This document shows positions 41,602 to 64,000 of a stretch of DNA of 64,000 nt, one piece after another (the first letter of the stretch is position 1; each line of letters opens with the position of its first letter). The position numbers were made by a program, and so were the translations under genes. Origin of the DNA: an uncultured Chloroflexia bacterium (GTDB lineage Bacteria; Chloroflexota; Anaerolineae; Anaerolineales; UBA4823); NCBI GenBank assembly GCA_963792075.1, contig CAWBUW010000007.1, positions 846,429-910,428 on the forward strand. The letters are read 5' to 3'. Below the pieces are notes generated by a model. The model saw only the letters and a list, made by a program, of their open reading frames with translations. It was not told where the DNA came from and ran no database searches.

Positions 41602-41616
41602 CTGAGCAATAAAGCG

Positions 41617-41967: not shown

Positions 41968-42726
41968 CTGGGCTGGGGAAGCGGGGGGTTTGGGGGCTTC
42001 CCCCATGAAAACTCTTGCCTGCCGGGAAGCGGCCCGCAGGCGTAGCCGGAGGGGAAAGCGTCGGCAGGTGCGAAGGGGGATTGTGGGCTGGTGTTCGGCG
42101 GGGGTAAGTCCGCTGGCGTTCTTTGCCAACGCCCCCGCCGATTTCTTGCACCAGCCCACCCCACAAGCATTACAATGCTTTCTTTGGTTTGCGGCTGGCA
42201 GGCTGGGGAACACTGCGAGCAGGCGGGCGAACAATCAACGAGACGGCTGGGGGAAAGGACCATGGCGCCGGGGCGGGCGAACAATCAACGAGACGGCAGG
42301 GGGAAAGAGACCGGCGCCGGAGCCGGGGCTGCCTGGCTTCCTGCAGCGCTCTGGCCTGGCGTGGCTGCCTGGCTTGCGCGGATCCGCGTGGGTCAAAGGC
42401 TGCTCAACCTGGTGGGCTGCCTGGCTGCTGTGCGCTGACCTGGTGCGCCTGGCTGCTGAGCTGGCCTGCTGCGCGCTGGCCTGGCTGCTGATCACCGGCC
42501 TGGTGGCTGCCTTCAGCTCGTGGCTGCCTTCAGCTCGTGGCTGCCTGGCTGCTCAATGGCTGCTCAACCTGGTGCGCGCTGGCCTGGCCTGGCTGCGGAT
42601 CACCGGCGAGGTTCAGCGCGCTGCAGCACGTGGGGCTGGCTGCTCAACCTGGTGCCTGGCCTGGTGGCTGCCTGGCTGCGATCCCTGGGCTGGTGGCTGC
42701 CTTCAGCTCGTGGCTGCCTGGCTCTG

Positions 42727-42749
42727 GGTAAACCGCCGGTTTACCCTAC
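42727..42749 (+). repeat. REP-like hairpin element
   Basis: GGTAAAC-CGCCG-GTTTACC-CTAC. Confidence 0.6.
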
Positions 42750-43222
42750 AATGGCTGCTCAACCTGGTGCGCGCTGGCCTGGCCTGGCTGCTGATCACCG
42801 GCCTGGTGGCTGTCGGGAATTGAATCACCGGCAAGGTTCAGCGCGCGGAGATCTGCGTATCTTTGGCGCCCAGCGCTGCACGCTGCGGTTCTTTCCTGGG
42901 GGTGGGTGGGCGGGTCCTGGGGGTGTGGGGGAAGCGAAGCGACCGGAAGCGGAGCGACCGGGGCGCGGAGCTTTCACCACTGGAAAACCACCTCCCGGCC
43001 TGGCTGCCCTCCCTGGACTGGCTGGCCTGGCTGCTGATCACCTGGTTTCTGTTGGCCTGGCTGCTGCTGGCGCTGCCGGCGCGCTGGCCATCGGCCTGGC
43101 TGCCCTCCCTGGCCTGGCTGGTTCTCTTGGCCTGGCTGGTTTTATTGGCCTGGCTGGGCTTCCCGGCCTGGCTGCTGCTGGCCTGGACCCGGGCGCTGTT
43201 TCCATCGACGTGCAAGATTTTT

Positions 43223-49913: not shown

Positions 49914-52900
49914 ATGGCATTGCAGGTCAAACCCCCTGTTAAATCGATATCCCAAGGCCAGGACCGGAAACGCACCATTGCCCTGTTGACCACCGGGGCA
50001 ATTGACCCTAACAATCGTGCAATTTGGGCCGGGGTGGATGAAGCCTCCAAGGATTTTGGGGTTAATCTCATTTGTTATCCGGGGCGGTTGGTGCAGTCGC
50101 CAGTCGGGTTCGAGGCTCAACGCAACATTATCTACCGCATGGTGGATGTGCAGACGGTGGATGGGCTGGTGGTGATGGGCGGCCTGAATGCCTGGATGGA
50201 CCTCGATAAAACCTACGCCTTCCTCCAGAAATTCCGCCCCAGGCCGATCGTGACGACCGGCATTGTGCTGGAAGGCATCCCCGGCGTGACGGTGGACAAT
50301 TACCACGGCATGTACGATGTGGTGACCCACCTGGTGAAAGTCCACCAGCGCCGCAAGGTAGCCTTTATTCGCGGGCAGGCCGGGCACCAGGAAGCCGATG
50401 ACCGCTACAAGGCCTACCGGGACGTCCTGGCGGAAAATAACATTCCTCTTGACCCGCAGTTGGTCTACCAGGGCGACTTCAAAGAAAGCGGCGGCATCCA
50501 GGGGGCGAAAACGCTGTTAGAGGAGCGCAAAGTACATTTCGATGCCCTGGTGGCAGCCAGCGACAATATGGCGATCGGCGCGCTGAAAACGCTCCAGGCG
50601 CTCGGGCTGCGCGTCCCGGCGGATGTGGCAATTGCCGGGGTGAATGGCGAGGAAGACGGGCTGGTGATTAGCCCGCCTTTGACCACCGCCCCGCTTCATT
50701 TTTACGAACAGGCTTACCAGGCCACCCTGATGGTGCTTTCGATGCTGGATGGCCAGGAAGTGCCGCCAAAAGTGGTTTTGCCCACCAGCATGGTGGTGCG
50801 GCAGTCCTGCGGCTGCCCCGACCCGCTTGTTTCGCATGCCCGGGCCATGCCCCACACCGAAAGACTGGATTCTTTCACTGAAGAAATCCGCCTGCTCGAC
50901 AGCCTGGTTTTTGGCGGCGCCGATTCTCAATTGCAGCTCCAGCCCGACGACCCGATGCAGCGCGGTTTCCCTCCGCTGCTCAAAGCTTTCTTGGATGAAA
51001 GCCGCGGTAAGTTGAATGGCGAATTCCTGCGGTTGTTTACCGAAACCATTCAGAAAACCGCCCGCACCAATGATGATTTCCCGCGTTGGCACGAAATCAT
51101 CTCCACTTTACGGCAATTCGCCGTTTCACAACTGACCGATACCACTTCCCGCCTACGGATTGAGAACCTGGTACAGCAGGCGCGCGTGGTGATCGGTGAA
51201 TCGTCCCGGCGGCATTATGCCTACCAGGTGCTCAAAGCGGACGAGAAACTGCACAACCTGGGGGAAATCAGCCAGAGCCTGAGCGTTGTCACCAGCCTGG
51301 CTGAACTGACCGACGTGTTGGAACGTTCGCTGGCACTGTTGGACATCCCCCGCTGTTACCTGTTCTTATATGAAAACCCGCTCGACCCCGAAGGGCTGGC
51401 GCGTTTTGTTTTCGCGTACGAAAACCATCGCCGCGTCCTTTTTGATCCGCATGGACAGGTTTTCCCGGCCCGCCAACTGCTGCCAGATAATTTACTCATC
51501 CCACTCCGCCAGCACAGCCTGGTAGTAGAACCGCTCTTCTTCCGTGAGGACCAACTGGGGTACGCCATCTTTGAGTCGGACCCACAAGAGGAGGCCATTT
51601 ACGAAATCCTGGGCGGGCAAATCAGCGCTTCGCTCAAACGCACCCTGCTGACCGAACGCAACATCCGCTTGTTCGATGAAGCGGTGGAAGCGCGTAAAGT
51701 TGCCGAACAGTCCAATTTGCTCAAAAGCCGCTTTCTTTCCATGGTCAGCCACGAGTTGCGCACCCCGCTGGCGCTGATCGTTGGCACCATCGAAATGATG
51801 CTCCAGGAGGAAAAAACCGGCAGTCATCCGCCGCTGCCAGGCTCCTACCGCAAGGACATGAACAGCATCCACACCAGCGCCCGGCACCTGTTTCGCCTGA
51901 TTGGTGATGTGCTTGATCTGGCCAGCAACCAGGCCGGGGAATTGAAGCTGGTCGCCGAGCCTTTGGACATGACCGCCCTGTTTGCCGAAGTGGCCGCGTT
52001 GGGCCAGGCGATGACCCGTGAAAAAGGGCTGGAATGGCGTGAGCGGATTCCGCCCAGCCTTCCGCCGGTGCTGGGCGACCGCACCCGCCTGCGCCAGGTG
52101 GTCCTCAACTTGCTCAATAATGCAGTCAAATTCACCGAACAAGGCTATGTCTCGCTAACCGTCCGCGCCGATGAAAAAATGGTGGAGGTGGAAGTTAGTG
52201 ACACGGGGATGGGCATCCCGGTCGAGGAGCAGGAGGTCATTTTCGACGAATTTCGCCGTTCCGAGCGCAGCGTGGCGCGCGGTTATGGCGGCATGGGACT
52301 GGGGTTGGCCATCACGCGGCGGTTGATCGAGCTGCACGGCGGACGAATTGGCGTCTGCTCCACCGGGCAGGAAGAAACCGGTTCGACCTTTTATTTTAAC
52401 CTGCCGGTCCTGGTCAACCCCACGCAGGATGTCGAAGTAAGTCACAGCCACCGAAATGCAGTTCTGCTCCTGAGCGAGGGGCAGGCAGAACAGTTGCAGC
52501 AGCATCTCCTGCGCAAAGGTTTCGAGGTGGAAGTGCTGGACTTTACGCAGCAGACCGACTGGATGAGACACGTCATCGCCCGGCCGCCCGGCGCGGTCGT
52601 ACTCGATTTCCAGCCCGCCACCGAGCGCGGTTGGGAGCTGGTGCAGTTGCTGAAACAAAACCCGGAAACCCGCGATGTGCCCGTGGTTTTCTACAACCTG
52701 TCCGCCGAGCTGGAGCAGGGCTCCATGCTCGAGCTGGACTACCTGTCCAAGCCAATTGCCAGCACAGACCTGTTCCTGGCTCTGGAAAGGTTGGGCCTGC
52801 AATGTGAAAATGACCGCAGGGCCATCCTGGTGGTAGATGACGATCCCAACGTGCTGGAAATGCACGTGCGGATGCTGGAAAGCCAGGTCAGTTGCCGCAT

Positions 52901-53537
52901 TCTCAAAGCGCGCCACGGGCGGCAAGCGCTGGAAATCATGCAGGCAGAAAACCCCGACCTGGTGTTGTTGGATTTGATGATGCCCGAAATGGATGGCTTC
53001 GAGGTGCTGCGGGTGATGCGCACGATGGAAGGCACCCGCAACATCCCTGTGATTGTGCTGACGGCGCAAATCCTGACCACGCACGACATGCTGAGATTGC
53101 AAGAGGGGGTGGCGGCGGTGCTGGGAAAAGGCCTGTTCAGCGTGGAAGAAGTGCTGGTACAAGTGGAAACTGCGCTGAGTCACAGCAAACGCCTGGGCAA
53201 CCTGGCGACGCGTACCGCCCGGCAGGCCATGGCTTATGTTCATGAGCATTACGATGAGCCGTTGTCCCGCGCAGACCTGGCGCGCCACGCTGCCATCACC
53301 GAACGCTACCTGACGCGCTGTTTCCGCGAGGAAATGGGCATCACGCCGATAACTTACCTGAACCGCTACCGGATTCAACGCGCCAAAACCTTGCTCAAGC
53401 AGGGTAAATTGAGCATCACCGAAATTGCCCTGGCAGTAGGTTTCTCAGATGCCAGTTACTTCAACCGTGTGTTCCGGCAGGAGGTCGGCCTGGCCCCCGG
53501 CGCATACCAGCGGGGTGAACAGCAGGATCGCGCCTAA
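49914..53537 (+). CDS. cytoplasmic hybrid one-polypeptide signalling protein: LacI-type periplasmic-binding-fold sugar sensor + histidine kinase + two receiver domains + AraC HTH
   Basis: 1207 aa. The N-terminal PBP1/LacI-like fold (VAFIRGQAGHQEADDRYKAY..., DNMAIGALKTL) has no TM helix. It is followed by H-box SHELRTPL, N and G boxes, an atypical REC, a canonical REC (LVVDDDPNVL...DLVLLDLMMPEMDG) and a C-terminal AraC-type HTH. Confidence 0.8.
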   Translation: MALQVKPPVKSISQGQDRKRTIALLTTGAIDPNNRAIWAGVDEASKDFGVNLICYPGRLVQSPVGFEAQRNIIYRMVDVQTVDGLVVMGGLNAWMDLDKTYAFLQKFRPRPIVTTGIVLEGIPGVTVDNYHGMYDVVTHLVKVHQRRKVAFIRGQAGHQEADDRYKAYRDVLAENNIPLDPQLVYQGDFKESGGIQGAKTLLEERKVHFDALVAASDNMAIGALKTLQALGLRVPADVAIAGVNGEEDGLVISPPLTTAPLHFYEQAYQATLMVLSMLDGQEVPPKVVLPTSMVVRQSCGCPDPLVSHARAMPHTERLDSFTEEIRLLDSLVFGGADSQLQLQPDDPMQRGFPPLLKAFLDESRGKLNGEFLRLFTETIQKTARTNDDFPRWHEIISTLRQFAVSQLTDTTSRLRIENLVQQARVVIGESSRRHYAYQVLKADEKLHNLGEISQSLSVVTSLAELTDVLERSLALLDIPRCYLFLYENPLDPEGLARFVFAYENHRRVLFDPHGQVFPARQLLPDNLLIPLRQHSLVVEPLFFREDQLGYAIFESDPQEEAIYEILGGQISASLKRTLLTERNIRLFDEAVEARKVAEQSNLLKSRFLSMVSHELRTPLALIVGTIEMMLQEEKTGSHPPLPGSYRKDMNSIHTSARHLFRLIGDVLDLASNQAGELKLVAEPLDMTALFAEVAALGQAMTREKGLEWRERIPPSLPPVLGDRTRLRQVVLNLLNNAVKFTEQGYVSLTVRADEKMVEVEVSDTGMGIPVEEQEVIFDEFRRSERSVARGYGGMGLGLAITRRLIELHGGRIGVCSTGQEETGSTFYFNLPVLVNPTQDVEVSHSHRNAVLLLSEGQAEQLQQHLLRKGFEVEVLDFTQQTDWMRHVIARPPGAVVLDFQPATERGWELVQLLKQNPETRDVPVVFYNLSAELEQGSMLELDYLSKPIASTDLFLALERLGLQCENDRRAILVVDDDPNVLEMHVRMLESQVSCRILKARHGRQALEIMQAENPDLVLLDLMMPEMDGFEVLRVMRTMEGTRNIPVIVLTAQILTTHDMLRLQEGVAAVLGKGLFSVEEVLVQVETALSHSKRLGNLATRTARQAMAYVHEHYDEPLSRADLARHAAITERYLTRCFREEMGITPITYLNRYRIQRAKTLLKQGKLSITEIALAVGFSDASYFNRVFRQEVGLAPGAYQRGEQQDRA

Positions 53538-53551
53538 CTTCTCAATAATTT

Positions 53552-53600
53552 GGTGTGGGGTGTTTTGTGCGTGCTTCGCACGCACAAAACACCCCACACC
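53552..53600. repeat. palindromic terminator-like element (family GTGGGGTRTTTTG...), copy 2
   Basis: ggtgtggggtgttttgtgcgtgc-ttc-gcacgcacaaaacaccccacacc. Confidence 0.7.
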
Positions 53601-53615
53601 CCTATTTCCACACTC

Positions 53616-53679
53616 TGTCCAATAATCCAAAAGCAAGTTCCAATTTTGCAAGACTTCTGCAGCGGTTTGTGACAAACTA
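53616..53679 (+). promoter_or_regulatory. conserved 64-nt upstream element, copy 1 (putative AraC-type operator/promoter)
   Basis: tgtccaataatccaaaagcaagttccaattttgcaagacttctgcagcggtttgtgacaaacta. It is near-identical to 55506-55569 and contains direct half-sites (G)TCCAAT(A/T)(A/T)T about 20 nt apart. Confidence 0.5.
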
Positions 53680-53735
53680 GGGATGCTTGGTCGCGCGCCG
53701 CGTGCGGGCTATTACTTATTCATTGCACACACATC

Positions 53736-54125
53736 ATGCCTGATCCTCACCCAACCCAACCCCGCTTGTGCGTCATCGGCGAATCCGACCCCTTCCTGGC
53801 CCGCCTGCTGCAGCGTTTTGCCGAAAAAAGCGGACTGAAGGTGACTTCCGCCCGCACCGGGGAGGACGTGCTGGCGCTGGCGCAGCATCACCGTCCAGCC
53901 CTGATTATCCTGGAGCCGGAATTGCCCGGAAAACTGCGCGGCTGGGATGTGATCCGGCAGTTGCGGGAGGACAGCCAGGAGATCCCGGTTATCGTTTGCG
54001 CCTGGCGAAAGAAAGACGAGACGTTGGCGCTGACCGGCCCGGTCGCTGCTTACCTGCAAAAGCCCGATTTGCATTACGAAGATTTTGTCACCGCGCTGGC
54101 GGCCGCTAACGTGACTTCGTGGTGA
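53736..54125 (+). CDS. stand-alone receiver-domain protein with Glu at the phospho-acceptor position
   Basis: 129 aa with a CheY-like fold. The acidic pocket is GESDP, ALIILEPELPG stands where DxxxLDxxMP is expected, and the conserved Lys is in YLQKP. Confidence 0.7.
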   Translation: MPDPHPTQPRLCVIGESDPFLARLLQRFAEKSGLKVTSARTGEDVLALAQHHRPALIILEPELPGKLRGWDVIRQLREDSQEIPVIVCAWRKKDETLALTGPVAAYLQKPDLHYEDFVTALAAANVTSW

Positions 54126-54180
54126 AAATTCAATATCGTCAATCGTCGTAGTATCTGAAAGATTATTTCGGAGGTAGAGA

Positions 54181-55446
54181 ATGAATTCAAGAGAACGAGT
54201 GCAACTCGCGCTGAATCACAAAGAAGCCGACCGTGTCCCGCTCGATCTGGGCGGCTGCGGCCAGACCGGCATGCACGTTTCCACCGTCTACGCCCTGCGC
54301 CAGGCGCTCAAACTCGATCCCCCCGGCGTCCCGGTCAAAGTGGATGAACCGTTTCAGATGCTGGGCGAAATCAAGCCTGATTTGCAGGATGCACTGGGAG
54401 TGGATGTGGTCGGTATGGGCGGGGAGACCAATTTCTTCGGCTATAAGAACGAAGGCTGGAAGCCCTGGACGACTTTCGATGGCACTCCCGTGCTCGTCCC
54501 GGAGCTGTTCAACACCAAATTGGAGGAGAATGGCGAAATCCTGATGTACCCACAGGGCGATAAATCGGTGCCGCCCTGCGCCAAAATGCCGAACGGTGGC
54601 TTTTATTTCGACAACATCGTCCGCCAGCCTCCCTTCGACGATGCCAGCTTAAATGTGGAGGACAACCTGGAGGAGTTTGGGCCGGTTTCTGCAGCGGACC
54701 TGGCCCATCTTAAGCGGGAAGCTGAGACCCTGCACACCCACACCGATAAAGCGATTGTGATGGTCCTGGGCGGCATGGCTTATGGCGACATCGCCCTGGT
54801 GCCGGGGCCGATGCTGAAAAAACCCCGCGGCATCCGCGATATGACCGAATGGTATATGAGCACGGTAACACGCCAGGATTACGTCCGCCAGGTCTTCGAG
54901 CGCCAATGTGAGATTGCGCTGGAGAACCTGCCCAAAATCTATGCCGCCGTGGGTGACCGCATTACGGTGGCCTGGATCAGCGGCACCGATTTTGGAGCGC
55001 AAAATAACTGCTTTATTTCTCCCAAGACTTTCCGTTCGCTGTACAAGCCTTTTTACACGCGCGTCAACGATTGGATCCACCAGAATACAAACTGGAAAAC
55101 CTTCATTCACTCTTGCGGGTCGATTTTGCCTATCATCCCCGACATTATCGAGGCTGGATTCGACATCCTCAACCCGGTGCAGACATCCGCAGCCAACATG
55201 GATCCGGCCGTGCTGAAGACCCGTTTCGGTGAGCAGGTCACGTTCTGGGGTGGCGGCGTAGACACCCAGCACACCCTGCCCTTCGGCACGCCGGAGGAGG
55301 TCCGCACGCAGGTGCGTGAACGGCTTGAGATTTTTGGCAAGGGTGGCGGGTTTGTCTTTAACCCTATCCACAATGTTCAAGCCCAGGTCCCCGTAGAAAA
55401 CCTGCTGGCAATGTACCAGACTGTCGCTGAATATGGGAAATATTGA
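54181..55446 (+). CDS. URO-D/MtaA-family methyltransferase-like protein (paralogue 1, HxC type)
   Basis: 421 aa with uroporphyrinogen-decarboxylase-fold family sequence. It contains IHSCG, an HxC zinc-ligand-type motif as in MtaA-like enzymes. Confidence 0.75.
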   Translation: MNSRERVQLALNHKEADRVPLDLGGCGQTGMHVSTVYALRQALKLDPPGVPVKVDEPFQMLGEIKPDLQDALGVDVVGMGGETNFFGYKNEGWKPWTTFDGTPVLVPELFNTKLEENGEILMYPQGDKSVPPCAKMPNGGFYFDNIVRQPPFDDASLNVEDNLEEFGPVSAADLAHLKREAETLHTHTDKAIVMVLGGMAYGDIALVPGPMLKKPRGIRDMTEWYMSTVTRQDYVRQVFERQCEIALENLPKIYAAVGDRITVAWISGTDFGAQNNCFISPKTFRSLYKPFYTRVNDWIHQNTNWKTFIHSCGSILPIIPDIIEAGFDILNPVQTSAANMDPAVLKTRFGEQVTFWGGGVDTQHTLPFGTPEEVRTQVRERLEIFGKGGGFVFNPIHNVQAQVPVENLLAMYQTVAEYGKY

Positions 55447-55505
55447 TCACACCTCAAAAACTTGGGGTAACCCCCTTTTTATTGAGAGGATACAAATATT
55501 GAGAT

Positions 55506-55569
55506 TGTCCAATAATCCAAAAACAAGTTCCAATTCTGCAAGACTTTGCAGGCCGTTTGTGACAAACTA
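55506..55569 (+). promoter_or_regulatory. conserved 64-nt upstream element, copy 2
   Basis: tgtccaataatccaaaaacaagttccaattctgcaagactttgcaggccgtttgtgacaaacta, ~95 nt upstream of the binding-protein start. Confidence 0.5.
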
Positions 55570-55663
55570 AAACCAGCGGGAAATGCTTGAATTGTGCTTT
55601 TCCCCCTTTGTTCATCGCCTGTCGCTGACAGGCAACAATTTCACCCGAGAGGAGAAAGAATTG

Positions 55664-57676
55664 ATGAAACGTTCCATGTATTTCCTTTTCACTGCTGTGG
55701 TGCTGGCGTCCATGTTATTGGCCTCCTGCGCCCCGGCCGCCACTCCTGAGGTGGCCGCGACGAAGGCGCCCGCGACCGAAGCGCCCGCGGCCCCCGCAGC
55801 AAGTAGCAAACCGCTCTTTGTGGTTATTAACAAGAGCGCCGATCAGCAATACTTCATTGACCTGCAAAACTCGTTCATGGACACTGCCACTACCCTGGGC
55901 GCGGATTCCAAGAAATTCGATGCCAAGCTCGACCCGAACCTGGGCGTGAGCCTGGTGAACGACGCCATTTCGGCGGGCGCCAAGGGCATCGCCATCACCG
56001 TCCCCGACCAGACGATCGGCCCGGCCATTGCCAAGGCCGCCAAGGATGCCGGTGTGGTGTTGATCGCCACCGATGACGGCATCAAGGACGAGGCTGGCAA
56101 CCCGGTCCCCTTCGTCGGCTTCGACGGCAAGGACATGGGCAAGAAAGTCGGCGAAGCGGCTGCCAAGCTGCTGACCGACAGCGGCTGGCTGACAGATTCT
56201 GCCAAGAAGGTCGGCGTGCTGTCTGTGGAAGTCCAGACCCTTTCGGTCTGCAATGACCGCACCGACAACGAAAAAGCCGCCGTGATTGCTGCTGGCGTAC
56301 CCGAAGCGCAGGTTTTCCCGGTTCCGTATACCGGTGAAGCCCTCTCCGCGCAGGATGCGGCCGGCCCGATCATCACCGCTCACCCTGAAGTCACCAACTG
56401 GGTCGTCTTTGGCTGCAATGACGAAGGCGCGCTGGGTACCCTGAATGCGCTCGCCACCGCCGGCGCCAAGCCCGATGACGTCATCGGCGTTGGCCTGGGC
56501 GCTTACGAAGCCTGCAAATTCTGGGCTGCCGATCAGCCCTCCGGCTTCAAAGCTGGCCTGTTCATCTCCGGCCTGGACGTTGGCAAGACCGCTGCAACCG
56601 TGCTCTTCGATGCGGTTGTGAACGGCAAAGCTCCGGCTCCCGCCTCTTACGCCCCCACCTCCATCGTCGATGCGTCTAACTTCAAGACCGTGATGGATCC
56701 GGTTTCTCTCGCAAACTGTGGCACTGCACCCGCTGCGGCTCCTGCCGCTGCCGAAAAGCCGCTCTTTGTGGTCATCAACAAGAGCGCCGATCAGCAGTAC
56801 TTCATTGACCTGCAAACCTCCTTCATGGACACTGCCACTACCCTGGGCGCGGATTCCAAGAAATTCGACGCCAAGCTCGACCCGAACCTGGGCGTGAGCC
56901 TGGTGAACGACGCCATTTCGGCGGGCGCCAAGGGCATCGCTATCACCGTCCCCGACCAGACGATCGGCCCGGCCATTGCCAAGGCCGCCAAGGATGCCGG
57001 TGTGGTGTTGATCGCCACCGATGACGGCATCAAGGACGAGGCTGGCAACCCGGTCCCCTTCGTCGGCTTCGACGGCAAGGACATGGGCAAGAAAGTCGGC
57101 GAAGCGGCTGCCAAGCTGCTGACCGACAGCGGCTGGCTGGCAGATTCTGCCAAGAAGGTCGGCGTGCTGTCTGTGGAAGTCCAGACCCTTTCGGTCTGCA
57201 ATGACCGCACCGACAACGAAAAAGCCGCCGTGATTGCTGCTGGCGTACCCGAAGCGCAGGTTTTCCCGGTTCCGTACACCGGTGAAGCCCTCTCCGCGCA
57301 GGATGCGGCCGGCCCGATCATCACCGCTCACCCTGAAATCACCAACTGGATTGTCTTTGGCTGCAATGACGAAGGCGCGCTGGGTACCCTGAATGCGCTC
57401 GCCACCGCCGGCGCCAAGCCCGATGACATCATCGGTGTTGGCCTGGGCGCTTACGAAGCCTGCAAGGCGTGGGCTGCCGATCAGCCCTCCGGCTTCAAAG
57501 CTGGCCTGTTCATCTCCGGCCTGGACGTTGGCAAAACCGCTGCAACTGTGCTCTTCGATGCGGTTGTGAACGGCAAAGCCCCGGCTCCCGCCTCTTACGC
57601 CCCCACCTCCATCGTCGATGCGTCTAACTTCAAGACCGTGATGGATCCAATATCACTCGCAAACTGCTCTAAGTAA
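55664..57676 (+). CDS. lipoprotein ABC substrate-binding protein made of two tandem near-identical type-I (ribose/xylose-like) binding domains
   Basis: ORF trimmed to MKRSMYFLFTAVVLASMLLASC, a lipobox signal peptide. Two ~316-aa modules differ at only a handful of residues. Confidence 0.85.
   Translation: MKRSMYFLFTAVVLASMLLASCAPAATPEVAATKAPATEAPAAPAASSKPLFVVINKSADQQYFIDLQNSFMDTATTLGADSKKFDAKLDPNLGVSLVNDAISAGAKGIAITVPDQTIGPAIAKAAKDAGVVLIATDDGIKDEAGNPVPFVGFDGKDMGKKVGEAAAKLLTDSGWLTDSAKKVGVLSVEVQTLSVCNDRTDNEKAAVIAAGVPEAQVFPVPYTGEALSAQDAAGPIITAHPEVTNWVVFGCNDEGALGTLNALATAGAKPDDVIGVGLGAYEACKFWAADQPSGFKAGLFISGLDVGKTAATVLFDAVVNGKAPAPASYAPTSIVDASNFKTVMDPVSLANCGTAPAAAPAAAEKPLFVVINKSADQQYFIDLQTSFMDTATTLGADSKKFDAKLDPNLGVSLVNDAISAGAKGIAITVPDQTIGPAIAKAAKDAGVVLIATDDGIKDEAGNPVPFVGFDGKDMGKKVGEAAAKLLTDSGWLADSAKKVGVLSVEVQTLSVCNDRTDNEKAAVIAAGVPEAQVFPVPYTGEALSAQDAAGPIITAHPEITNWIVFGCNDEGALGTLNALATAGAKPDDIIGVGLGAYEACKAWAADQPSGFKAGLFISGLDVGKTAATVLFDAVVNGKAPAPASYAPTSIVDASNFKTVMDPISLANCSK
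55811..57671 (+). repeat. 948-bp-period tandem duplication inside the binding-protein gene
   Basis: ccgctctttgtgg... starts at 55811 and again at 56759. About 913 bp are repeated with only scattered substitutions. The ORF track's mirrored antisense ORFs (55843..56376 and 56791..57324) are near-identical. Confidence 0.9.
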
Positions 57677-57694
57677 TCCATCGAACCATTTACA

Positions 57695-57777
57695 CCCCTC
57701 ACCCCATAGCCCCTCTCCCGTTGGGAGAGGGGTGCAGAAGCTCCCCTCCCCCACGGGGGGAGGGGCAGGGGTGAGGG
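57695..57777 (+). promoter_or_regulatory. GC-rich nested hairpin cluster between the binding-protein and ATPase genes
   Basis: The outer stem cccctcacccc/ggggtgaggg encloses cccctctccc-gtt-gggagagggg and cccctccccc-ac-gggggagggg. Confidence 0.55.
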
Positions 57778-57855
57778 AATTTTAAGTGCCCCGGTCTAAC
57801 ACCGGAGAATGTAAAGCCCTTGTCTGCGGGCGCCGCAGGGGATACAATCTAATCC

Positions 57856-59451
57856 ATGACCATGACTGATACCCCTTCTCCTTCGACCGTTGTCCCTGAA
57901 TCGGATGCCCCTCCCGGAACGCTCCAAATTCGTGACATCAGCAAAGCTTTTCCCAACGTCCTGGCCCTGACCGAGGTCTCGCTCGACATTCGCCCCGGCG
58001 AGATCCTGGCTTTTATGGGTGAAAACGGCGCCGGGAAATCGACGCTGCTCAAAATCATCAACGGCGATTACCAGCCTGATTCTGGCACCTTGATGATGGA
58101 CGGCCAGCGCCTGGTGTTTTCCAGCCCGTTTGCCGCGCACCGCGCCGGGATTCGCGTCATCTACCAGGAACCGGAAATCATCCCTGGTGTAGATGTGGCA
58201 GAAAATATCTGGGTGGGTGAGCTGCCCAAGCGCCTGGGCTTCATCGAGCGCCGCCGCCTGAACGAACAGGTGCAACGCAGCCTGGAAGAATACGGCTTCG
58301 CCAATGTTTTGCCGACCAACCTGCTCGGGGACCAGCTTTCGCCCGCCCAGCGGCAGTTGGTGGAAATTATGCGCGCCCTTAAATCAGGCGTGCGTGTCCT
58401 GGCGCTGGACGAACCGACCTCGTCATTGTCGGACGAGGAAGTTGAACGCCTGTTTACCCTCGTACGTCGCCTGCGAGACGAGGGGGTAGCCATTATTTAT
58501 GTTTCTCATCGCATCAAAGAAATCCTACGGCTCTGCGACAAGGTCGCCATCTTGCGCGATGGCCGCCTGGTTGCCGTCCGCCCCGCGGCTGAGCTGACCG
58601 ATGGTGAAATCGTCCGCTTGATGGTGGGCCGTGAGCTCTCGGACGTTCTCCAGCGCAGCCACGCGGATACCGGCCGCGAAGTGCTGCGCGTTGAAAACCT
58701 GCGCAGCAACTACCATACCGACGTCAACTTCCACATCAACGCCGGCGAGGTGGTAGGGTTTGCCGGGCTGGTAGGCGCGGGCCGCTCGGAATTAGCCAAA
58801 GTGATTTTTGGCGAATTCCCCAAAAGCGGCGGAAAAATCTTTCTGGAAGGCCGGGAAGTCACCATTCGCCGCCCCGATGACGCCATCGCTAAGGGGATTG
58901 GTTTTGCACCCGAGGACCGCAAACGCGAAGGCCTGGTATTGGTGCGCAGCGTTCTCGAAAATGCCTCCATCGCCATCCTGCGGCGCTTAAGTCGTTTCCA
59001 TTTTGTTCGCAGCGGGATGGAGAGAGCGGTGGTGTCCGGGTTTGTGGAAAAACTTCAGGTACGCACGCCTTCGCTGGAACAGGAAGTGGGCAAACTTTCG
59101 GGCGGCAACCAGCAGAAGGTGGTCATCGCCCGCTGGCTGGCGGCCAAGCCCAAGGTTCTGATCCTCGATGAACCGACGCGCGGCATCGACGTGGGCGCAA
59201 AAGCAGAAATTTACCGCCTGGTGGACGAGCTTGCCAACCAGGGTTTAGGCATCATGTTTATCAGTTCCGAGCTGCCCGAGATCCTTGGGCTTTCAGACCG
59301 TATTTATGTCATGCAAAACGGCCGTATCACCGGAGAACTTTCCGGGGCGAATGCCAGCGAGGAAGCCGTCCTCGGGCTGGCCATGGTCGACCACTTATCG
59401 GCGGCTCCGGCTGAGACCGCGGCGCCTTCCGAGGAGAATACCCCCCTATGA
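57856..59451 (+). CDS. sugar ABC transporter ATP-binding protein (two fused ABC domains, RbsA/MglA-like)
   Basis: Walker A GENGAGKST, signature LSPAQRQ / LSGGNQQK, two Walker B motifs; 531 aa. Confidence 0.9.
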   Translation: MTMTDTPSPSTVVPESDAPPGTLQIRDISKAFPNVLALTEVSLDIRPGEILAFMGENGAGKSTLLKIINGDYQPDSGTLMMDGQRLVFSSPFAAHRAGIRVIYQEPEIIPGVDVAENIWVGELPKRLGFIERRRLNEQVQRSLEEYGFANVLPTNLLGDQLSPAQRQLVEIMRALKSGVRVLALDEPTSSLSDEEVERLFTLVRRLRDEGVAIIYVSHRIKEILRLCDKVAILRDGRLVAVRPAAELTDGEIVRLMVGRELSDVLQRSHADTGREVLRVENLRSNYHTDVNFHINAGEVVGFAGLVGAGRSELAKVIFGEFPKSGGKIFLEGREVTIRRPDDAIAKGIGFAPEDRKREGLVLVRSVLENASIAILRRLSRFHFVRSGMERAVVSGFVEKLQVRTPSLEQEVGKLSGGNQQKVVIARWLAAKPKVLILDEPTRGIDVGAKAEIYRLVDELANQGLGIMFISSELPEILGLSDRIYVMQNGRITGELSGANASEEAVLGLAMVDHLSAAPAETAAPSEENTPL

Positions 59452-60593
59452 GCAACAACGAACAAGCAGCCCAGGTAACACCCCAGGTAAAAACCAAGCC
59501 CAGGCGCGACATCTTGCGTGAAACGCTTGGATTTATCGGCGCTGATAACCTTTCGCTCATTTTTGCGCTGGTCGCACTCGTGTTCCTGATTACCGTGGCG
59601 AGTGGTTGGGTAGGGATGCCCGGCGGCTCAAAATTTTTCACCTGGCAAAACCTGATGAACAGCCTGGCGCAGGCAATTGTGATTGTTGGCCTGATTTCCA
59701 TCGGTGAAACAGTCGTCATTATCGCCGGGGCGCTCGACATTTCTGTCGGCTCCATTGCTTCCATCGGGTCGGTGGTTGCGGCCTCGGTGCTGGTTGGCAC
59801 CGGTACGGTCGGATCATTGGGCATCCTGCCCACCGGCATCACGGTCGTAGCCGTCCTCGCCGGCATCGCCGCCGGGATGATTGCCGGTGCGATCAACGGT
59901 TCCATCGTCACCGCCCTGCGCGTCAACCCGACCATCGCCACGCTCGGCACGCTGGCGGCCTTCGCCGGGTTTGCCTTCCTGCTGGCTCCGGAAGGTAAAC
60001 CGATTGGCGTTCTGACCCAGCCCGATTTCACCTGGATGGCCCAGGGCCGCTTCCTGACCGAGAGCGCTATCCCGCCATTGGGCGGCTCGAACTGGACCGG
60101 CATCCCGGTGCTGACGGTGATCCTCGTCATCGTCGCCATCCTCATCCATATCCTGATGCGCTACACCGATTTTGGCCGCGCCATTTACGCCATCGGCGGG
60201 AATCCCACCGCCGCCCGCCTGGCCGGGATTAACATCTCGCAGGTGCGGATTGTGATGTATATGATTTCCGGTGGCATTGCCGGGTTAGCCGGCGTTTTGC
60301 TGACCGCGCGCACCACCTCGGGTAACCCCATCAACGGCACCGGGCTGGAACTGCAGGCTATTACCGCCGTCTTCCTGGGTGGAGCGGCCACTTCTGGCGG
60401 CAAAGGCACCATCATGGGCACCTTCCTGGCCGTCATCCTGGTGGGCGTACTCAACAATGGCATGAACCTGCTCGGCTTCAACACCTTTACCCAGCGCGTG
60501 GCGCTTGGTTTGCTGCTGATCGCCGCTGTGGCGATTTCACAGTGGCGGCAGGCGCAGGCTGAAAGTGCCCGCACCCGCGCCGAAAAGCATTAA
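59448..60593 (+). CDS. sugar ABC transporter permease (RbsC/AraH family)
   Basis: 381-aa polytopic protein. The ATG overlaps the upstream stop (ATGA). Confidence 0.85.
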   Translation: MSNNEQAAQVTPQVKTKPRRDILRETLGFIGADNLSLIFALVALVFLITVASGWVGMPGGSKFFTWQNLMNSLAQAIVIVGLISIGETVVIIAGALDISVGSIASIGSVVAASVLVGTGTVGSLGILPTGITVVAVLAGIAAGMIAGAINGSIVTALRVNPTIATLGTLAAFAGFAFLLAPEGKPIGVLTQPDFTWMAQGRFLTESAIPPLGGSNWTGIPVLTVILVIVAILIHILMRYTDFGRAIYAIGGNPTAARLAGINISQVRIVMYMISGGIAGLAGVLLTARTTSGNPINGTGLELQAITAVFLGGAATSGGKGTIMGTFLAVILVGVLNNGMNLLGFNTFTQRVALGLLLIAAVAISQWRQAQAESARTRAEKH

Positions 60594-60610
60594 TCTTCGG
60601 GAAAAATAAC

Positions 60611-61780
60611 TTGAACAACCGTGAACGCTTTACCCAAGCCATTCACTGGGAACCGGTCGACCGCCTCCTGACCTACGATTACCTCGACAATACCGGCATT
60701 CTAAGGAAGTACGGCGGTTACGACAACTCCCGGAAGTATACCTTCGAGGAACTGGTCGAAGTCAACGCCCGCGCCTGGAAGAATATCGGCGTGGACGTGA
60801 CCCGCTCCATCCACGACCCCGTCAATCACTGGATGGGCGGTAAGATCACCAACTGGATCCGCTTCTTCGGGGTCAACCCGGATGATTGGGCGGTTTCCCA
60901 GGCGGGTGAGACGGCCTGGATCTCCAAACGGCCTTTCAAGACGCTGGCGGAGCTCGAAAAGCACATGCCCCACAAGCCGGTCTATGAAGAGGTGCGTGAT
61001 TGGTACCAGCCTTTCATCCGCTACGTCCAGCAGGTGCATGACCATTACGACGTGGCCTTTATCGGCGCGATCGAAGGCCCGATTACCGATGCCTATTCCT
61101 TCATGGATATGGAGTTGTTCGCCCAGGCCATCTACGACGCCCCGGAGCTGGTCTCTCACATCATGGATTGCACCGGGTTGTTCTCGGCCTACGTCGCCAG
61201 GGCTTTTGCGGAAGTTTCCAGCGTACCGCTCTTGTTCATGGGCGAGGATATTTCCGGTACCACCGGGCCGATTTTCAACCCCAAATTTGTCCGCCAGGAA
61301 GGTTTGCCGCGCTGGAAGTGGATTACCGCGCCCATCAAAGACAAGGGGATGAAATTCTTATTCCACACCGATGGCCGCTACGGGAAATTCCTGCCCCTGA
61401 TTTTCGACGAGCTGGAAGCCGACGGCCTGAACCCCATCGAGCGCAATAACTGCAATGACATTTTCGCCATCCGCAAGGAATACCCGCACAAACTGCTCTT
61501 TGGGAATGTCTGCTGTATCCATACCCTGCCGCATGGCTCTCTGGAAGATGTGCAGGATGAGACTTTGGAATTGATCGAAAAGATTGGGCCGCAGGGCGGG
61601 ATCTTTATCGGTTCGTCGAGCGAAGTCCACGACGCCATCCCCGTGGAAAATGCCGCTATGATGTACCGGACCGTCCACGAATACGGCGATTATCCGATTG
61701 ACGTAGAACGCATCCGCGCCCTCCGGGCCGGCCTGCGCCAAAATGGCAGTTTGAAACTGCGCGCCAATGAGCCGCTCTAA
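60611..61780 (+). CDS. URO-D/MtaA-family methyltransferase-like protein (paralogue 2, HxD type)
   Basis: 389 aa with a TTG start per the ORF track. URO-D-fold family; it has FHTDG where paralogue 1 has HSCG. Confidence 0.7.
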   Translation: MNNRERFTQAIHWEPVDRLLTYDYLDNTGILRKYGGYDNSRKYTFEELVEVNARAWKNIGVDVTRSIHDPVNHWMGGKITNWIRFFGVNPDDWAVSQAGETAWISKRPFKTLAELEKHMPHKPVYEEVRDWYQPFIRYVQQVHDHYDVAFIGAIEGPITDAYSFMDMELFAQAIYDAPELVSHIMDCTGLFSAYVARAFAEVSSVPLLFMGEDISGTTGPIFNPKFVRQEGLPRWKWITAPIKDKGMKFLFHTDGRYGKFLPLIFDELEADGLNPIERNNCNDIFAIRKEYPHKLLFGNVCCIHTLPHGSLEDVQDETLELIEKIGPQGGIFIGSSSEVHDAIPVENAAMMYRTVHEYGDYPIDVERIRALRAGLRQNGSLKLRANEPL

Positions 61781-61796
61781 AGTTGTTGGCTTTGAT

Positions 61797-61838
61797 GGTG
61801 GTGTGTGCGGGCGGCGTAGGCCGCCTGCACACACCACC
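61797..61838. terminator. 19-bp hairpin between paralogue 2 and the corrinoid protein gene
   Basis: ggtggtgtgtgcgggcggc-gtag-gccgcctgcacacaccacc, with one G.T pair. Confidence 0.5.
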
Positions 61839-61873
61839 AATAATACATCATTACCCAATGAAAGAGGCTATTT

Positions 61874-62515
61874 ATGGAATCGTTGATTAAAGAAATCCAC
61901 ACCGCTGTGATGGAAGGCCAGAGTGACGTTGTCCAGGAAAAAGTACAGGCTGCGCTGACCGCAGGACTGCCCGCCGCAGCCATCCTGAATGAGGGCATGA
62001 TTTCGGCCATGTCCGAGGTCGGGAAGTTATTCGAAGAAGGCGAATACTTTGTCCCTGAAATGCTCATCTCCGCCCGCGCCATGCAGGCCGGGCTGGTCCT
62101 GCTCAAGCCCATGCTTAAGGAAGCAAACGTCAAATCGGCTGGCACGGTCGTTATCGGCACGGTCAAAGGCGATCTGCACGACATCGGCAAGAACCTGGTG
62201 GCCATGATGCTCGAAGGCGCCGGGTTCGAGATCATCGACCTGGGATCCGACGTTGCCCCGGAAAAATTTGCCGCCGCCGTACGCGAAAAAAGTCCCCAGA
62301 TCGTGGCCCTGTCGGCCCTGCTGACTACCACCATGCCCTCCATGACCGCTACGATCAACGCGCTCAAACAGGCCGGGGTGCGCGAGCAGGTCAAAGTGAT
62401 GATCGGCGGCGCGCCTGTTACCGCCGCATATGCCACCCAGGTCGGCGCGGATGGCTTCGCGGCCGACGCCAGCCGGGCTGTTGCCCTGGCCAAATCCCTG
62501 GTCGAGTCTGCCTGA
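61874..62515 (+). CDS. cobalamin-binding corrinoid protein (MtaC/MtbC-like)
   Basis: 213 aa with an N-terminal helical cap and a Rossmann B12-binding domain. It carries DxHxxG (GDLHDIGKN), SxL (SALLTTT) and GG (MIGGAP). Confidence 0.85.
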   Translation: MESLIKEIHTAVMEGQSDVVQEKVQAALTAGLPAAAILNEGMISAMSEVGKLFEEGEYFVPEMLISARAMQAGLVLLKPMLKEANVKSAGTVVIGTVKGDLHDIGKNLVAMMLEGAGFEIIDLGSDVAPEKFAAAVREKSPQIVALSALLTTTMPSMTATINALKQAGVREQVKVMIGGAPVTAAYATQVGADGFAADASRAVALAKSLVESA

Positions 62516-62525
62516 AAACCTCCCC

Positions 62526-63614
62526 ATGAAACCCCGCGACCGCGTCCTGATGGCGCTCCATCACGAAGCGCCTGACCGCTGCCCGATGCAGGTCTCGTTT
62601 ACGCCTGAGTTCGCCGCCCGCCTGCGCCAGGAAATGAACCTGCGCAGCGACAAAATCCACAACCCGCACGGCGGCGGGAATACCTACGAGCTGGAACGCG
62701 CCCTGGGCGAGGATATGCTGCTGACCTCCGTCGGCTGGGCCAATTCCTATTATCAGGAGGCTCAATCCTACCAGGATGAATGGGGCATCGGCTGGAAAAC
62801 GGCGGAATATAACACGCCCTTTGGGGCCGGCACCTACACCGAGATCGTCGGCCACCCCCTGGCCGAAGACAGCGCCCTGGCTGCCTATACTCCGCCCGAC
62901 CCCACTCGCCCCGAGCTCTACGCCGAAGCCGGTTGGGTGCTGCGCACCTTCCAGGACGAATACTTTATCGTTGGGGTGACGGTCACGACCATTTTCGAAA
63001 CGGCCTGGGCCTTGCGCGGCTACGAGCGCATGTTATCCGATTTTGCGCTCAAACCCGACCTGGCCGAGCAGATCCTCGACATCCCTTACCGCTATCACCT
63101 GGCTGCCGCCAAAAAACTGACCCAGATGGGCGTGGACATGGTTTGGCTGGGTGATGACGTTGGCGCGCAGCACGCCATGCTGATTTCGCCCAAAATGTGG
63201 CGGCGCTTTTTCAAGCCGCGTATGGCGAATTTCATTGCCGAGCTCAAGGCCATCAACCCGCAGGTAAAAGTGGCCTACCATTCAGACGGCAACATCTACC
63301 CCATCATCCCGGACCTGATTGAAATCGGGTTGGATGTGCTCAACCCCATCCAACCCGCCTGCATGGACCCATCCAGGCTCAAGCAGGATTATGGCGATAA
63401 ACTCTGCTTCTGGGGTTCGATGGACGAACAGCATACCCTGCCCTTTGGTTCCGCCGCCGATGTGCGCGCCGAAGTGCTGGCGCGCCTGAAAACTCTCGGC
63501 AAAAACGGCGGCTTGATCCTCGGCCCCACCCACCACGTCCAACTGGATACGCCCATGGAAAACTTCTGGGCGCTGGTGAATACCATTGCGCAGACCGCCT
63601 ATCGTGATTTATAG
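62526..63614 (+). CDS. URO-D/MtaA-family methyltransferase-like protein (paralogue 3, HxD type)
   Basis: ORF trimmed to MKPRDRVLMALHHEAPDRCP; 362 aa. It has YHSDG at the HxC-equivalent position. Confidence 0.75.
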   Translation: MKPRDRVLMALHHEAPDRCPMQVSFTPEFAARLRQEMNLRSDKIHNPHGGGNTYELERALGEDMLLTSVGWANSYYQEAQSYQDEWGIGWKTAEYNTPFGAGTYTEIVGHPLAEDSALAAYTPPDPTRPELYAEAGWVLRTFQDEYFIVGVTVTTIFETAWALRGYERMLSDFALKPDLAEQILDIPYRYHLAAAKKLTQMGVDMVWLGDDVGAQHAMLISPKMWRRFFKPRMANFIAELKAINPQVKVAYHSDGNIYPIIPDLIEIGLDVLNPIQPACMDPSRLKQDYGDKLCFWGSMDEQHTLPFGSAADVRAEVLARLKTLGKNGGLILGPTHHVQLDTPMENFWALVNTIAQTAYRDL

Positions 63615-63634
63615 GTAACATCTCAAAAAGGGGG

Positions 63635-63677
63635 GTGGGGTATTTTGGGCGGGCTTTGCCCGCCCAAAATACCCCAC
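63635..63677. repeat. palindromic terminator-like element (family GTGGGGTRTTTTG...), copy 3
   Basis: gtggggtattttgggcggg-ctttg-cccgcccaaaataccccac. It has the same loop as copy 1, with stem differences compensated on both arms. Confidence 0.7.
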
Positions 63678-63687
63678 TTAGTAAAGG

Positions 63688-64000
63688 ATGGCCCAAATTT
63701 TGAATACGACCTGGCACGATTTCCCCGCCCTCGCCCTTGAAGACGAACGCATGCGCCTCGTCGTCGTCCCCCACCTGGGTGCGAAAATCGTCTCGCTGTT
63801 GGATAAAAAGCACTCGCGCGAATGGTTGGCGCCGCCCATGCGCCCGCTGAAACAAACCGCCTACGGCGCCGATTTTGTCGGCCAGGACATGAGCGGCTGG
63901 GACGAAATGCTGCCCACCATCGTCGCTTGCGATTGGGAAGGCGCGCACCTGCCCGACCATGGGGAAGTCTGGAGCATCCCCTGGCAGGTGGACGACGCCC
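63688..64000 (+). CDS. partial CDS (5' end), possibly a galactose-mutarotase-like / aldose-epimerase-fold protein
   Basis: My own translation from the ATG at 63688: MAQILNTTWHDFPALALEDERMRLVVVPHLGAKIVSLLDKKHSREW...PDHGEVWSIPWQVDDA. The frame is open to the window edge. The family call is tentative. Confidence 0.4.
   Translation, partial: MAQILNTTWHDFPALALEDERMRLVVVPHLGAKIVSLLDKKHSREWLAPPMRPLKQTAYGADFVGQDMSGWDEMLPTIVACDWEGAHLPDHGEVWSIPWQVDDA

Follow-up and report, generated by a model that had tools for sequence, protein, structure and literature searches.

Corrinoid-dependent O-demethylases, such as Odm/Vdm of Acetobacterium dehalogenans, MtoABCD of Methermicoccus/Archaeoglobus, and CdmBCA, combine a substrate-side methyltransferase (methyltransferase I, MT I), a corrinoid protein, a second methyltransferase (MT II), and an activating enzyme. 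We compared these systems with a gene cluster at positions 49914–64000 of a 64,000-nucleotide (nt) stretch (hereafter, the window) of contig CAWBUW010000007.1 (assembly GCA_963792075.1, positions 846,429–910,428, forward strand) from an uncultured Chloroflexia bacterium (Anaerolineae in the GTDB lineage). Like them, the cluster joins URO-D-type candidates for the substrate-side enzyme to a B12 carrier with a cap domain and a DxHxxG motif, and it resembles them further in the several putative MT I paralogs per locus and in the pterin-binding MT II encoded by close relatives of the window. It departs from them in that the window lacks an MT II and the sugar clusters lack an activase. The aromatic and haloalkane contexts of the known systems are replaced here by a sugar importer and a mutarotase gene, accompanied in relatives by Leloir genes, and instead of acetogens or methanogens the hosts are Chloroflexota with a fermentative metabolism.

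Three further groups of enzymes invite comparison. The MtaA/MtbA/MtsA/CmuA family (TIGR01463; 4ay7) gives the best profile match for all three URO-D paralogs of the window (UroD1, UroD2, and UroD3) and the best fold match for the UroD1 and UroD2 models, with His-x-Cys/Asp at the zinc motif, but the window proteins score 44–70 bits against a cut-off of 235 and their ligand sets differ. To our knowledge, coenzyme M metabolism is not expected in Chloroflexota. Type 1 mlp clusters, the nearest described loci of this make-up, likewise hold several MtaA-like URO-D paralogs and a corrinoid protein, without a folate methyltransferase, in non-methanogens; their own features are His-Cys-Cys sites, a Ram/RACE activase, S/Se neighbors, and mostly Firmicutes hosts (PMC10418091). 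We rejected membership in this type on the basis of ligands, the missing activase, and the sugar neighbors, that is, by features and not by a tree that includes Mlp sequences. The oxidative demethylases CYP236A (PMC6292453) and MocDEF share with our proposal the net reaction, in which a sugar-like molecule loses an O-methyl group and becomes open to ordinary catabolism. They require O2 and release formaldehyde, whereas the route proposed here would be O2-independent and would retain the methyl group, bound first to a corrinoid and later to folate. Our literature search found carbohydrate demethylation described as oxidative only, by the P450 CYP236A, which O-demethylates 6-O-methyl-D-galactose (PMC6292453), and found no report joining corrinoid methyltransferases to methylated sugars.

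We propose, with somewhat more confidence than doubt, that the cluster serves, under regulation, to take up and demethylate a galacto-configured sugar bearing an O-methyl group, most likely an O-methyl-D-galactose. The original prediction for this stretch, that a corrinoid/URO-D set demethylates a methylated carbohydrate after its import, is supported by comparative genomics through the linkage of UroD2 with transporter and mutarotase genes, the presence in related clusters of GalK/GalT, an in-cluster MT II, and a MocDEF-type fusion, and the association of UroD1 with corrinoid protein and RACo genes in other phyla.

A URO-D gene set linked to a sugar importer

Ten co-oriented genes on the + strand occupy positions 49914–64000. 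Pfam and NCBIfam searches agreed with the gene set as first listed, and its gene identities, domain content, conserved synteny, and co-occurrence are direct observations. We gathered related loci from species-representative genomes anchored on UroD1 (80 loci) and from a metagenome scan anchored on UroD2 (80 further loci). Dozens of genomes and metagenome contigs that are independent of one another hold the same set, so chance does not account for the arrangement. UroD2 (60611–61780, +, 389 amino acids (aa), TTG start) belongs to a much narrower family than UroD1, essentially confined to Chloroflexota, with 607 matches in a word-indexed search; at 50% clustering it has a single full-length representative at 529 bits, the next full-length proteins scoring at most 374 bits. 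Among 22 informative loci, defined by a UroD2 of at least 70% identity and at least 3.5 kb of upstream sequence, the neighbors of UroD2 included an AraH-like permease in 21, the ATPase in 20, a mutarotase-like protein in 18, UroD3 and UroD1 in 11 each, and the corrinoid protein (CoP) in 10.

Among the UroD1-anchored loci, the complete cluster (kinase, receiver, UroD1, binding protein, ATPase, permease, UroD3, UroD2, and mutarotase) was found in Anaerolineae only, in Brevefilum, Flexilinea, and Bellilinea relatives (L001, L004–L011). Minimal clusters took the form permease, CoP, mutarotase, and UroD2 (L094, L101, L105, L130, L131) or UroD1, transporter, mutarotase, and UroD2 (L086, L112). On a 4.4-Mb contig (L083), the order was DUF5107/TPR protein, LacI, double binding protein, ATPase, permease, CoP, UroD3, aldose epimerase, UroD2, a fourth weak URO-D, GalK, GalT, and UroD1. 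Distant UroD2 orthologs (61–69% identity) keep a carbohydrate context while their transporters differ: an SSF sodium:solute symporter lies directly before UroD3–UroD2 in L141, L146, and L158, a second CUT2 system accompanies UroD2 in L147 (with an adjoining GatZ/KbaZ-like gene), L149, L151, and L160, and L166 contains a DUF4432 protein plus two UroD3-like genes. The exchange of transporter class around a constant enzyme pair gives good grounds for taking the transported sugar as the substrate of these enzymes. Given its constant transporter partner, and clusters in which UroD2 and CoP stand alone as methyl-transfer genes, UroD2 is the best candidate for the core MT I, a putative methyl-sugar:corrinoid methyltransferase.

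Full-length orthologs suggest that the possible mutarotase-fold protein of the original prediction belongs to the aldose-1-epimerase family (mutarotase/DUF4432-like). The window contains only the 5′ part of this gene (63688–64000, +, the first 104 codons, cut by the window end), and the fragment itself has no Pfam match; it is 76% identical over 100 aa to its ortholog in L088, the closest related cluster. Against Aldose_epim (PF01263, gathering threshold 27 bits), full-length orthologs score 39.6 bits (L083, E 5e-10), 32.2 bits (L088), and 26.3 bits (L004), and they also match DUF4432 and DUF5107 weakly. A separate protein of ~1090 aa, combining DUF5107 (mutarotase-like) with TPR, is a neighbor of UroD2 in 11 of 57 close loci; loci with this protein are L083 (1–819), L086 (1–1367), L101, L105, L109, L113, L121, L123, L125, and L127–L129.

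The importer comprises a binding lipoprotein (open reading frame from 55583, ATG at 55664, end at 57676; 2x Peripla_BP_4), a CUT2-type ATP-binding cassette (ABC) ATPase with two nucleotide-binding domains (57856–59451; ABC_tran x2), and a CUT2-type ABC permease (59448–60593; BPD_transp_2), all on the + strand. The transporter had been labeled ribose/xylose-type; our searches place it instead in the arabinose/galactose type, with the CUT2 system AraFGH of E. coli as the best match for all three components. The best Protein Data Bank (PDB) match of the binding protein is the E. coli L-arabinose-binding protein (1abe, E 1e-28, residues 43–297), ribose-binding proteins matching far less well (E about 1e-7), and the best NCBIfam matches of ATPase and permease are the equivalogs AraG and AraH (AraFGH profiles NF008442 / NF008441). 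Unlike AraFGH, the ATPase and permease fall below the equivalog cut-offs (588 bits against 689 and 186 bits against 378, respectively), and the binding lipoprotein carries two fused, near-identical modules. The transporter is of the same subfamily as AraFGH, likely with a different specificity.

While the likeness of the binding protein to Rbs/Xyl proteins did not hold, its lipoprotein nature did: a ribosome-binding site precedes the ATG and the lipobox reads LLASC. The protein is a tandem fusion of two periplasmic binding protein (PBP) modules, copy 1 at 55808–56755 and copy 2 at 56756–57676; a direct comparison of the two gives 96.3% identity at the DNA level and 97.7% at the protein level. 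Nine loci (the window, L004, L006, L007, L011, L083, L086, L113, and L128) encode such a double binding protein, and fourteen others a single module. The fused modules are 94.7–99.7% identical within each of the nine loci and only 77–92% identical between loci, copy 1 of one locus being no closer to copy 1 than to copy 2 of another. Such a pattern is in keeping with either gene conversion (concerted evolution) or duplications that arose repeatedly and independently. An assembly artefact was rejected as the source of the double protein, which occurs in nine independent assemblies including the 4.4-Mb contig.

At the head of the cluster, a hybrid regulator (49914–53537, +, 1207 aa) unites in one polypeptide an N-terminal LacI/PBP-type sugar-binding sensor, a kinase, two receivers, and a C-terminal AraC-type helix-turn-helix (HTH) domain (Pfam Peripla_BP_1/3/4, HisKA, HATPase_c, 2x Response_reg, AraC-type HTH); a stand-alone receiver follows (53736–54125, +, 129 aa, Response_reg E 4.6e-13). 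The all-in-one logic of sensor, kinase, receiver, and AraC HTH and the PBP-fold sugar sensor are common to Bacteroides-type hybrid two-component systems, and the regulator presumably resembles the fructose sensor BT1754. Unlike the Bacteroides-type systems, it has two receiver domains, with the extra receiver gene behind them, and hydropathy analysis found no hydrophobic or membrane segment and no signal peptide in it. The regulator is therefore probably a cytoplasmic sensor with a cytoplasmic ligand. The idea that kinase sensor and transport binding protein share a ligand-binding module was rejected, their similarity being undetectable. Regulator orthologs (50–80% identity) stand at the cluster head in L004, L005, L007, L010, L088, and L117, a LacI repressor takes their place in other related clusters, and the stand-alone receiver is kept after the kinase in L004, L005, L007, L010, L011, and L117.

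URO-D paralogs and their corrinoid partners

Profile checks on PF01208 and PF02310/PF02607 identified three URO-D proteins and one corrinoid protein. UroD1 (54181–55446, +, 421 aa), UroD2, and UroD3 (62523–63614, +, 363 aa) score 58.9, 66.5, and 99.9 bits against Pfam URO-D, all above the gathering score of 23.9 bits; databases annotate the URO-D proteins of these clusters only as ‘uroporphyrinogen decarboxylase family protein’. MtaA/CmuA-type NCBIfam profiles rank first for all three (E 1e-12 to 1e-19), at 44–51 bits for UroD1, 45–46 bits for UroD2, and 68–70 bits for UroD3, against family cut-offs of 235–244 bits (MtaA/CmuA TIGR01463 and the methylcobalamin:coenzyme M methyltransferase PRK06252). 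The HemE profile (TIGR01464, cut-off 303 bits) is matched by UroD3 alone (20.5 bits, E 2e-4). In sequence searches of PDB, MtaA (4ay7) was the best match for UroD1 (E 7e-5) and UroD3 (E 5e-11), the match to CdmB reaching only E 0.03–0.12 over the C-terminus; for UroD1, a profile built from close orthologs was less sensitive than the single sequence. The best fold match was MtaA for the AlphaFold2 models of both UroD1 (4ay8, E 1.3e-11) and UroD2 (4ay7, E 1.5e-10, TM 0.65–0.73), with HemE structures next in both searches. The C-terminal 160 aa of UroD3 are 44% identical to UroD1, and UroD2 is more distant.

The paralogs thus do not group with bona fide HemE: they were rejected as HemE because MtaA-type profiles and folds rank above it, and as MtaA proper because their scores lie far under the cut-off and a His-Cys-Cys site is lacking. 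We regard UroD1, UroD2, and UroD3 as separate and apparently new URO-D clades. Some clusters carry a fourth URO-D paralog and one contig a fifth (L005 8725–9903, L007 8651–9877, L128, L083 11218–12333); these extra types are either 392–408 aa long and located just upstream of UroD1, or very divergent, 371 aa long, and located after UroD2.

The motifs that the original prediction quoted for the paralogs, HSCG, HTDG, and HSDG, are all present in the translations. At the MtaA zinc-ligand positions, located by alignment to 4ay7 plus the invariant columns of each family, UroD1 has H310/C312/H397 (invariant in the family), UroD2 has H252/D254 with E338/H340 nearby (invariant in the family), and UroD3 has H253/D255/H337 with H338 adjacent (invariant in 33 orthologs). 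The putative metal ligand sets are His-Cys-His (UroD1), His-Asp-Glu/His (UroD2), and His-Asp-His (UroD3), and the His-Cys-Cys zinc site of MtaA is absent in all three. In the UroD superfamily, S-methyltransferases are reported to have His-Cys-Cys, and O-methyltransferases to carry carboxylates or non-ligands in place of one Cys or of both (Kountz & Balskus, PMC10418091); the crystal structure of CdmB, an MT I, contains no metal at all (PMC13222342). As the ligand sets fit the reported O-type pattern, and CdmB is metal-free, the three paralogs look like O-type, substrate-side enzymes.

CoP (61874–62515, +, 213 aa) contains B12-binding_2 (PF02607) and B12-binding (PF02310) domains with the DxHxxG (DLHDIG), SxL (SAL), and GG motifs expected from the first reading, and it scores 197 bits against TIGR02370 (methyltransferase cognate corrinoid protein), just under the cut-off of 215. 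The window, which ends inside the cluster, holds no MT II: tblastn searches of the 64 kb found no pterin-binding methyltransferase and no RACo, in agreement with the original prediction, and likewise no DUF1638 or homocysteine-methyltransferase genes. In L088, however close otherwise (UroD2 89%, UroD1 86% identical), two genes are inserted between UroD3 and the mutarotase gene. The first encodes a 292-aa Pterin_bind protein that scores 313.7 bits against NCBIfam PRK07535 (cut-off 259), the methyltetrahydrofolate:corrinoid/iron-sulfur protein methyltransferase; judged by this score, it is the MT II absent from the window. In-cluster Pterin_bind proteins also occur in L087, L089, and partially L108, another lies in L028, a locus of UroD1 and CoP with a different ABC transporter, and L049 has a 36%-identical copy.

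The wider UroD1 family, with >8000 database relatives and orthologs 64–88% identical across phyla, offers a second view of the corrinoid connection. In 71 loci outside the sugar clusters, UroD1 neighbors included CoP (17), RACo (14), DUF1638 (13), and a homocysteine-methyltransferase-like module (7), and B12-binding and RACo rank first among the Pfam families of 148 immediate UroD1 neighbors. The strongest evidence that the UroD1 clade works with a corrinoid protein is the gene order in Acidobacteriota, namely homocysteine-methyltransferase-like, DUF1638, MtaA-like, RACo, CoP, and UroD1, the last often in two copies. UroD1 is a probable corrinoid-dependent methyltransferase, and the Acidobacteriota clusters resemble a split methionine synthase that would be fed by some methyl donor. 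Such clusters were seen in the Terriglobia loci L025, L029, L049, L052, L071, and others, L049 also holding a pterin-binding module. Sugar-type transporters or dehydrogenases lie near UroD1 in about one-quarter of the non-cluster loci (CUT2 in L028, L062, and L064; elsewhere CUT1 permeases, MFS, SSF, and GFO/IDH/MocA).

Several observations weigh against our proposal. CoP is missing from about half of the clusters (absent, for example, from L001, L007, L010, L084, and L086), so that the corrinoid protein stands as a member of the window cluster, not as part of every related one. No RACo-type activase was found by tblastn in any of 84 UroD2-anchored loci. The paralogs are only remotely related to proven methyltransferases, UroD2 has no significant PDB sequence match, and the AlphaFold2 models of UroD1 and UroD2 are of moderate confidence (pLDDT 73; pTM 0.76 and 0.79 for the two models). 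UroD1 orthologs also occur in many unrelated contexts, including the dcw cell-division cluster; in the Anaerolineae locus L023 (6282–13459) the order is MurC, MurB, Ddl, UroD1, FtsQ, and FtsA, and similar neighbors are suggested for L015, L053, L054, and L059.

The gaps in CoP and activase distribution, the remote likeness to proven methyltransferases, and the rank of HemE structures just behind MtaA would suit an explanation in which the URO-D paralogs are not corrinoid methyltransferases at all, being for example decarboxylases or other TIM-barrel enzymes, with CoP an accessory or passenger and demethylation carried out with O2 by a MocDEF-like oxygenase, which ten loci encode as a fusion (described below). 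We consider this improbable. The oxygenase is absent from most loci and from the visible part of the window cluster, whereas the URO-D genes are constant; CoP is set between URO-D genes with gaps of only 7–93 nt; RACo, which serves corrinoid proteins only, flanks the UroD1 family in 14 loci; and MtaA/CmuA profiles beat HemE for all three paralogs. In L087–L089, CoP also co-occurs with a bona fide methyltetrahydrofolate:corrinoid methyltransferase, an enzyme that argues for corrinoid chemistry because it would be useless without a methyl-corrinoid donor or acceptor.

If the paralogs are corrinoid methyltransferases, as we favor, their roles might still be divided, and the original prediction had suggested, from the zinc-ligand position, a split between substrate:corrinoid and corrinoid:acceptor transfer. 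With the HSCG paralog, UroD1, as the corrinoid:acceptor enzyme, the His-Asp proteins UroD2 and UroD3 would serve sugar:corrinoid transfer, and the His-Cys protein UroD1 would methylate a thiol (homocysteine, sulfide, or other), as MtaA does coenzyme M, dispensing with a folate enzyme. UroD1 retains the MtaA His-x-Cys motif, is unusually conserved across phyla (64–68%), as for a universal co-substrate, occurs in clusters that lack a pterin-binding gene, the window included, and has a weak match (E 0.01) to a profile of MetE-like methionine synthases. The third ligand of UroD1 is His, however, and not the Cys of the His-Cys-Cys reported for S-methyltransferases (PMC10418091); it co-occurs with modules that already supply an MT II in L028, L049, other Acidobacteriota loci, and L088; and minimal sugar clusters hold CoP and UroD2 without UroD1. 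An acceptor-side UroD1 is not supported by the comparison and, though possible, is less likely, since pterin- or homocysteine-binding modules fill that role and the third UroD1 ligand is His; we give the divided scheme only a small chance. With every visible MT II a pterin- or homocysteine-binding protein, all of the URO-D paralogs may be substrate-side enzymes.

The sugar and its modification

The sugar was approached through the genes that accompany UroD2. GalK and/or GalT lie within the cluster in L083, L102, L108, L118, L120, and L137. A mutarotase, GalK, and GalT together make up the Leloir entry for galactose, and the most economical reading is therefore that a modified galactose is turned into D-galactose by the cluster; GalK and GalT point to galactose as the product. 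This assignment has its own difficulties, in that Leloir genes occur in just 6 of the UroD2-anchored loci, and L084 has GH95, GH127, and apiosidase-like neighbors that suggest another sugar, so some clusters may act on other methylated sugars.

The second gene inserted in L088 (13060–15339) bears on the nature of the modification. It encodes a 759-aa fusion of a membrane di-iron oxygenase of the FA_desaturase family, a MocE-family Rieske ferredoxin, and an FNR-type reductase (PF00487 + PF00355 + PF00175); TIGR02377 (cut-off 136) gives the Rieske domain 118 bits. The fusion, 759–761 aa long, is present in ten loci (L004, 15292–16098; L087–L090; L095; L099; L115; L116; L126) and on one further contig together with a PhyH dioxygenase, a DUF5107/TPR protein, and another URO-D gene; no MocD/MocE/MocF-type genes lie within the window. 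It may be a self-sufficient MocDEF-type oxygenase and perhaps an O2-dependent alternative demethylase. MocDEF is said to have been proposed by Bahar and colleagues in 1998 as a ferredoxin-oxygenase that removes the rhizopine O-methyl group. The mocDEF genes are required to catabolize rhizopine, 3-O-methyl-scyllo-inosamine (PMC10107442). Since an O2-dependent candidate O-demethylase sits in the same locus, the common substrate would carry a methyl ether. On whether the modification is a methyl ether and the predicted chemistry corrinoid-dependent, three independent observations say yes: CoP in about half of the clusters, the MT II of L088, and the oxygenase fusion.

The same corrinoid O-demethylation could act on a different substrate: a methylated cyclitol resembling pinitol or rhizopine; a methyl glycoside, for example methyl-beta-galactoside; or a pentose or deoxy-sugar that carries a methyl group and comes from the side chains of pectin rhamnogalacturonan II. 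The binding protein weakly matches a rhizopine-catabolism binding protein (E 1.6e-9), the MocDEF-like oxygenases of relatives recall cyclitol demethylation, and GFO/IDH/MocA dehydrogenases lie near some UroD1 orthologs; the neighbors in L084 and the minority of loci with Leloir genes are compatible with such a substrate as well. We nevertheless regard it as unlikely, if worth keeping in view. A mutarotase-family gene accompanies UroD2 in 18 of the 22 loci, which suits an aldose and not a cyclitol, the sole repeated catabolic genes are GalK, GalT, and GatZ, and AraF-type binding proteins, as known from the E. coli arabinose-binding protein, recognize L-arabinose, D-galactose, and D-fucose. An O-methylated galactose is the substrate that we prefer.

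Transcription, proposed pathway, and significance

The intergenic gaps in the cluster are, in order, 198, 55, 217, 179, −4, 17, 93, 7, and 73 nt, the ATPase and permease genes sharing a 4-nt overlap, and these sizes would fit transcription as one unit or as two. Between UroD3 and the mutarotase gene lies a perfect hairpin (63635–63677, strand not assigned) with a 20-bp stem, 13 G-C pairs, and a 3-nt loop. A T-run is found on its minus-strand side only, and the hairpin is therefore no canonical terminator for the cluster strand. The genes upstream of 49914, encoding a P-type ATPase, an M24 peptidase, and a pyridoxal phosphate (PLP) decarboxylase, are unrelated to the cluster. A search with Rfam found no cobalamin riboswitch in the window; it found two tandem cyclic di-GMP-I riboswitch aptamers at 9465–9541 and 9578–9675 (+; RF01051, 37.6 and 75.8 bits). 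Elsewhere in the window, positions 38000–43200 have an unusually strong positive GC skew (0.24–0.36); this stretch contains two open reading frames without a Pfam match (40096–41601 and 41846–42823) and, at 42222–43175, several short tandem repeats.

We propose a pathway of five steps, each of whose catalytic reactions we infer from sequence comparison, as we do the assignment of the URO-D proteins as corrinoid methyltransferases, the sugar, the methyl acceptor, and the roles of the paralogs. The sugar would be imported by the lipoprotein with its two AraF-like modules and the AraGH-like ABC translocator, and the genes would be induced by the cytoplasmic PBP-sensor kinase through its AraC-type output. 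The corrinoid protein in its Co(I) form would then receive the O-methyl group, with UroD2 as the core enzyme of the transfer and with UroD3 and UroD1 probably as paralogs for other methyl positions or related sugars. A pterin-binding enzyme of the methyltetrahydrofolate:corrinoid methyltransferase (MeTr) type would hand the methyl group to tetrahydrofolate; in this genome its gene must lie elsewhere. Finally, the freed sugar would be mutarotated by the aldose-1-epimerase-like protein and enter the Leloir pathway.

The logic of corrinoid O-demethylation is known; what would be new is the substrate class and the URO-D clades. We suggest tentatively, with a little less than even confidence, that this is the first oxygen-independent carbohydrate O-demethylase, in which new URO-D clades (UroD1–3 and further paralogs) would take the methyl groups off the ethers of imported sugars and load them onto a cobalamin protein, from which they would reach folate.

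Sugar methyl ethers are constituents of plant, algal, and microbial polysaccharides, among them 6-O-, 3-O-, and 4-O-methyl-galactose, 2-O-methyl-fucose and -xylose, and 4-O-methyl-glucuronate, and they block ordinary glycolytic processing. Methylated sugars withstand breakdown in the gut and build up in sea water, as noted in the CYP236A work (PMC6292453). If our proposal is correct, it would help to explain the turnover of methylated sugars in digesters, sediments, peat, and guts, would tie polysaccharide breakdown to C1/folate metabolism in non-acetogens, and would add carbohydrates to the aromatic ethers, amines, thiols, and halides on which corrinoid methyltransferases act. Loci with the O2-dependent MocDEF-type fusion would provide oxic and anoxic routes for one substrate. 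The locus supplies concrete candidate proteins for this chemistry: besides the binding protein and the sensor, there are a carrier and three or four enzymes that could act as MT I. Methylated sugars that have been thought recalcitrant would then be usable by fermentative Chloroflexota and, via the UroD1 family, also by Acidobacteriota, Planctomycetota, and Bathyarchaeia.

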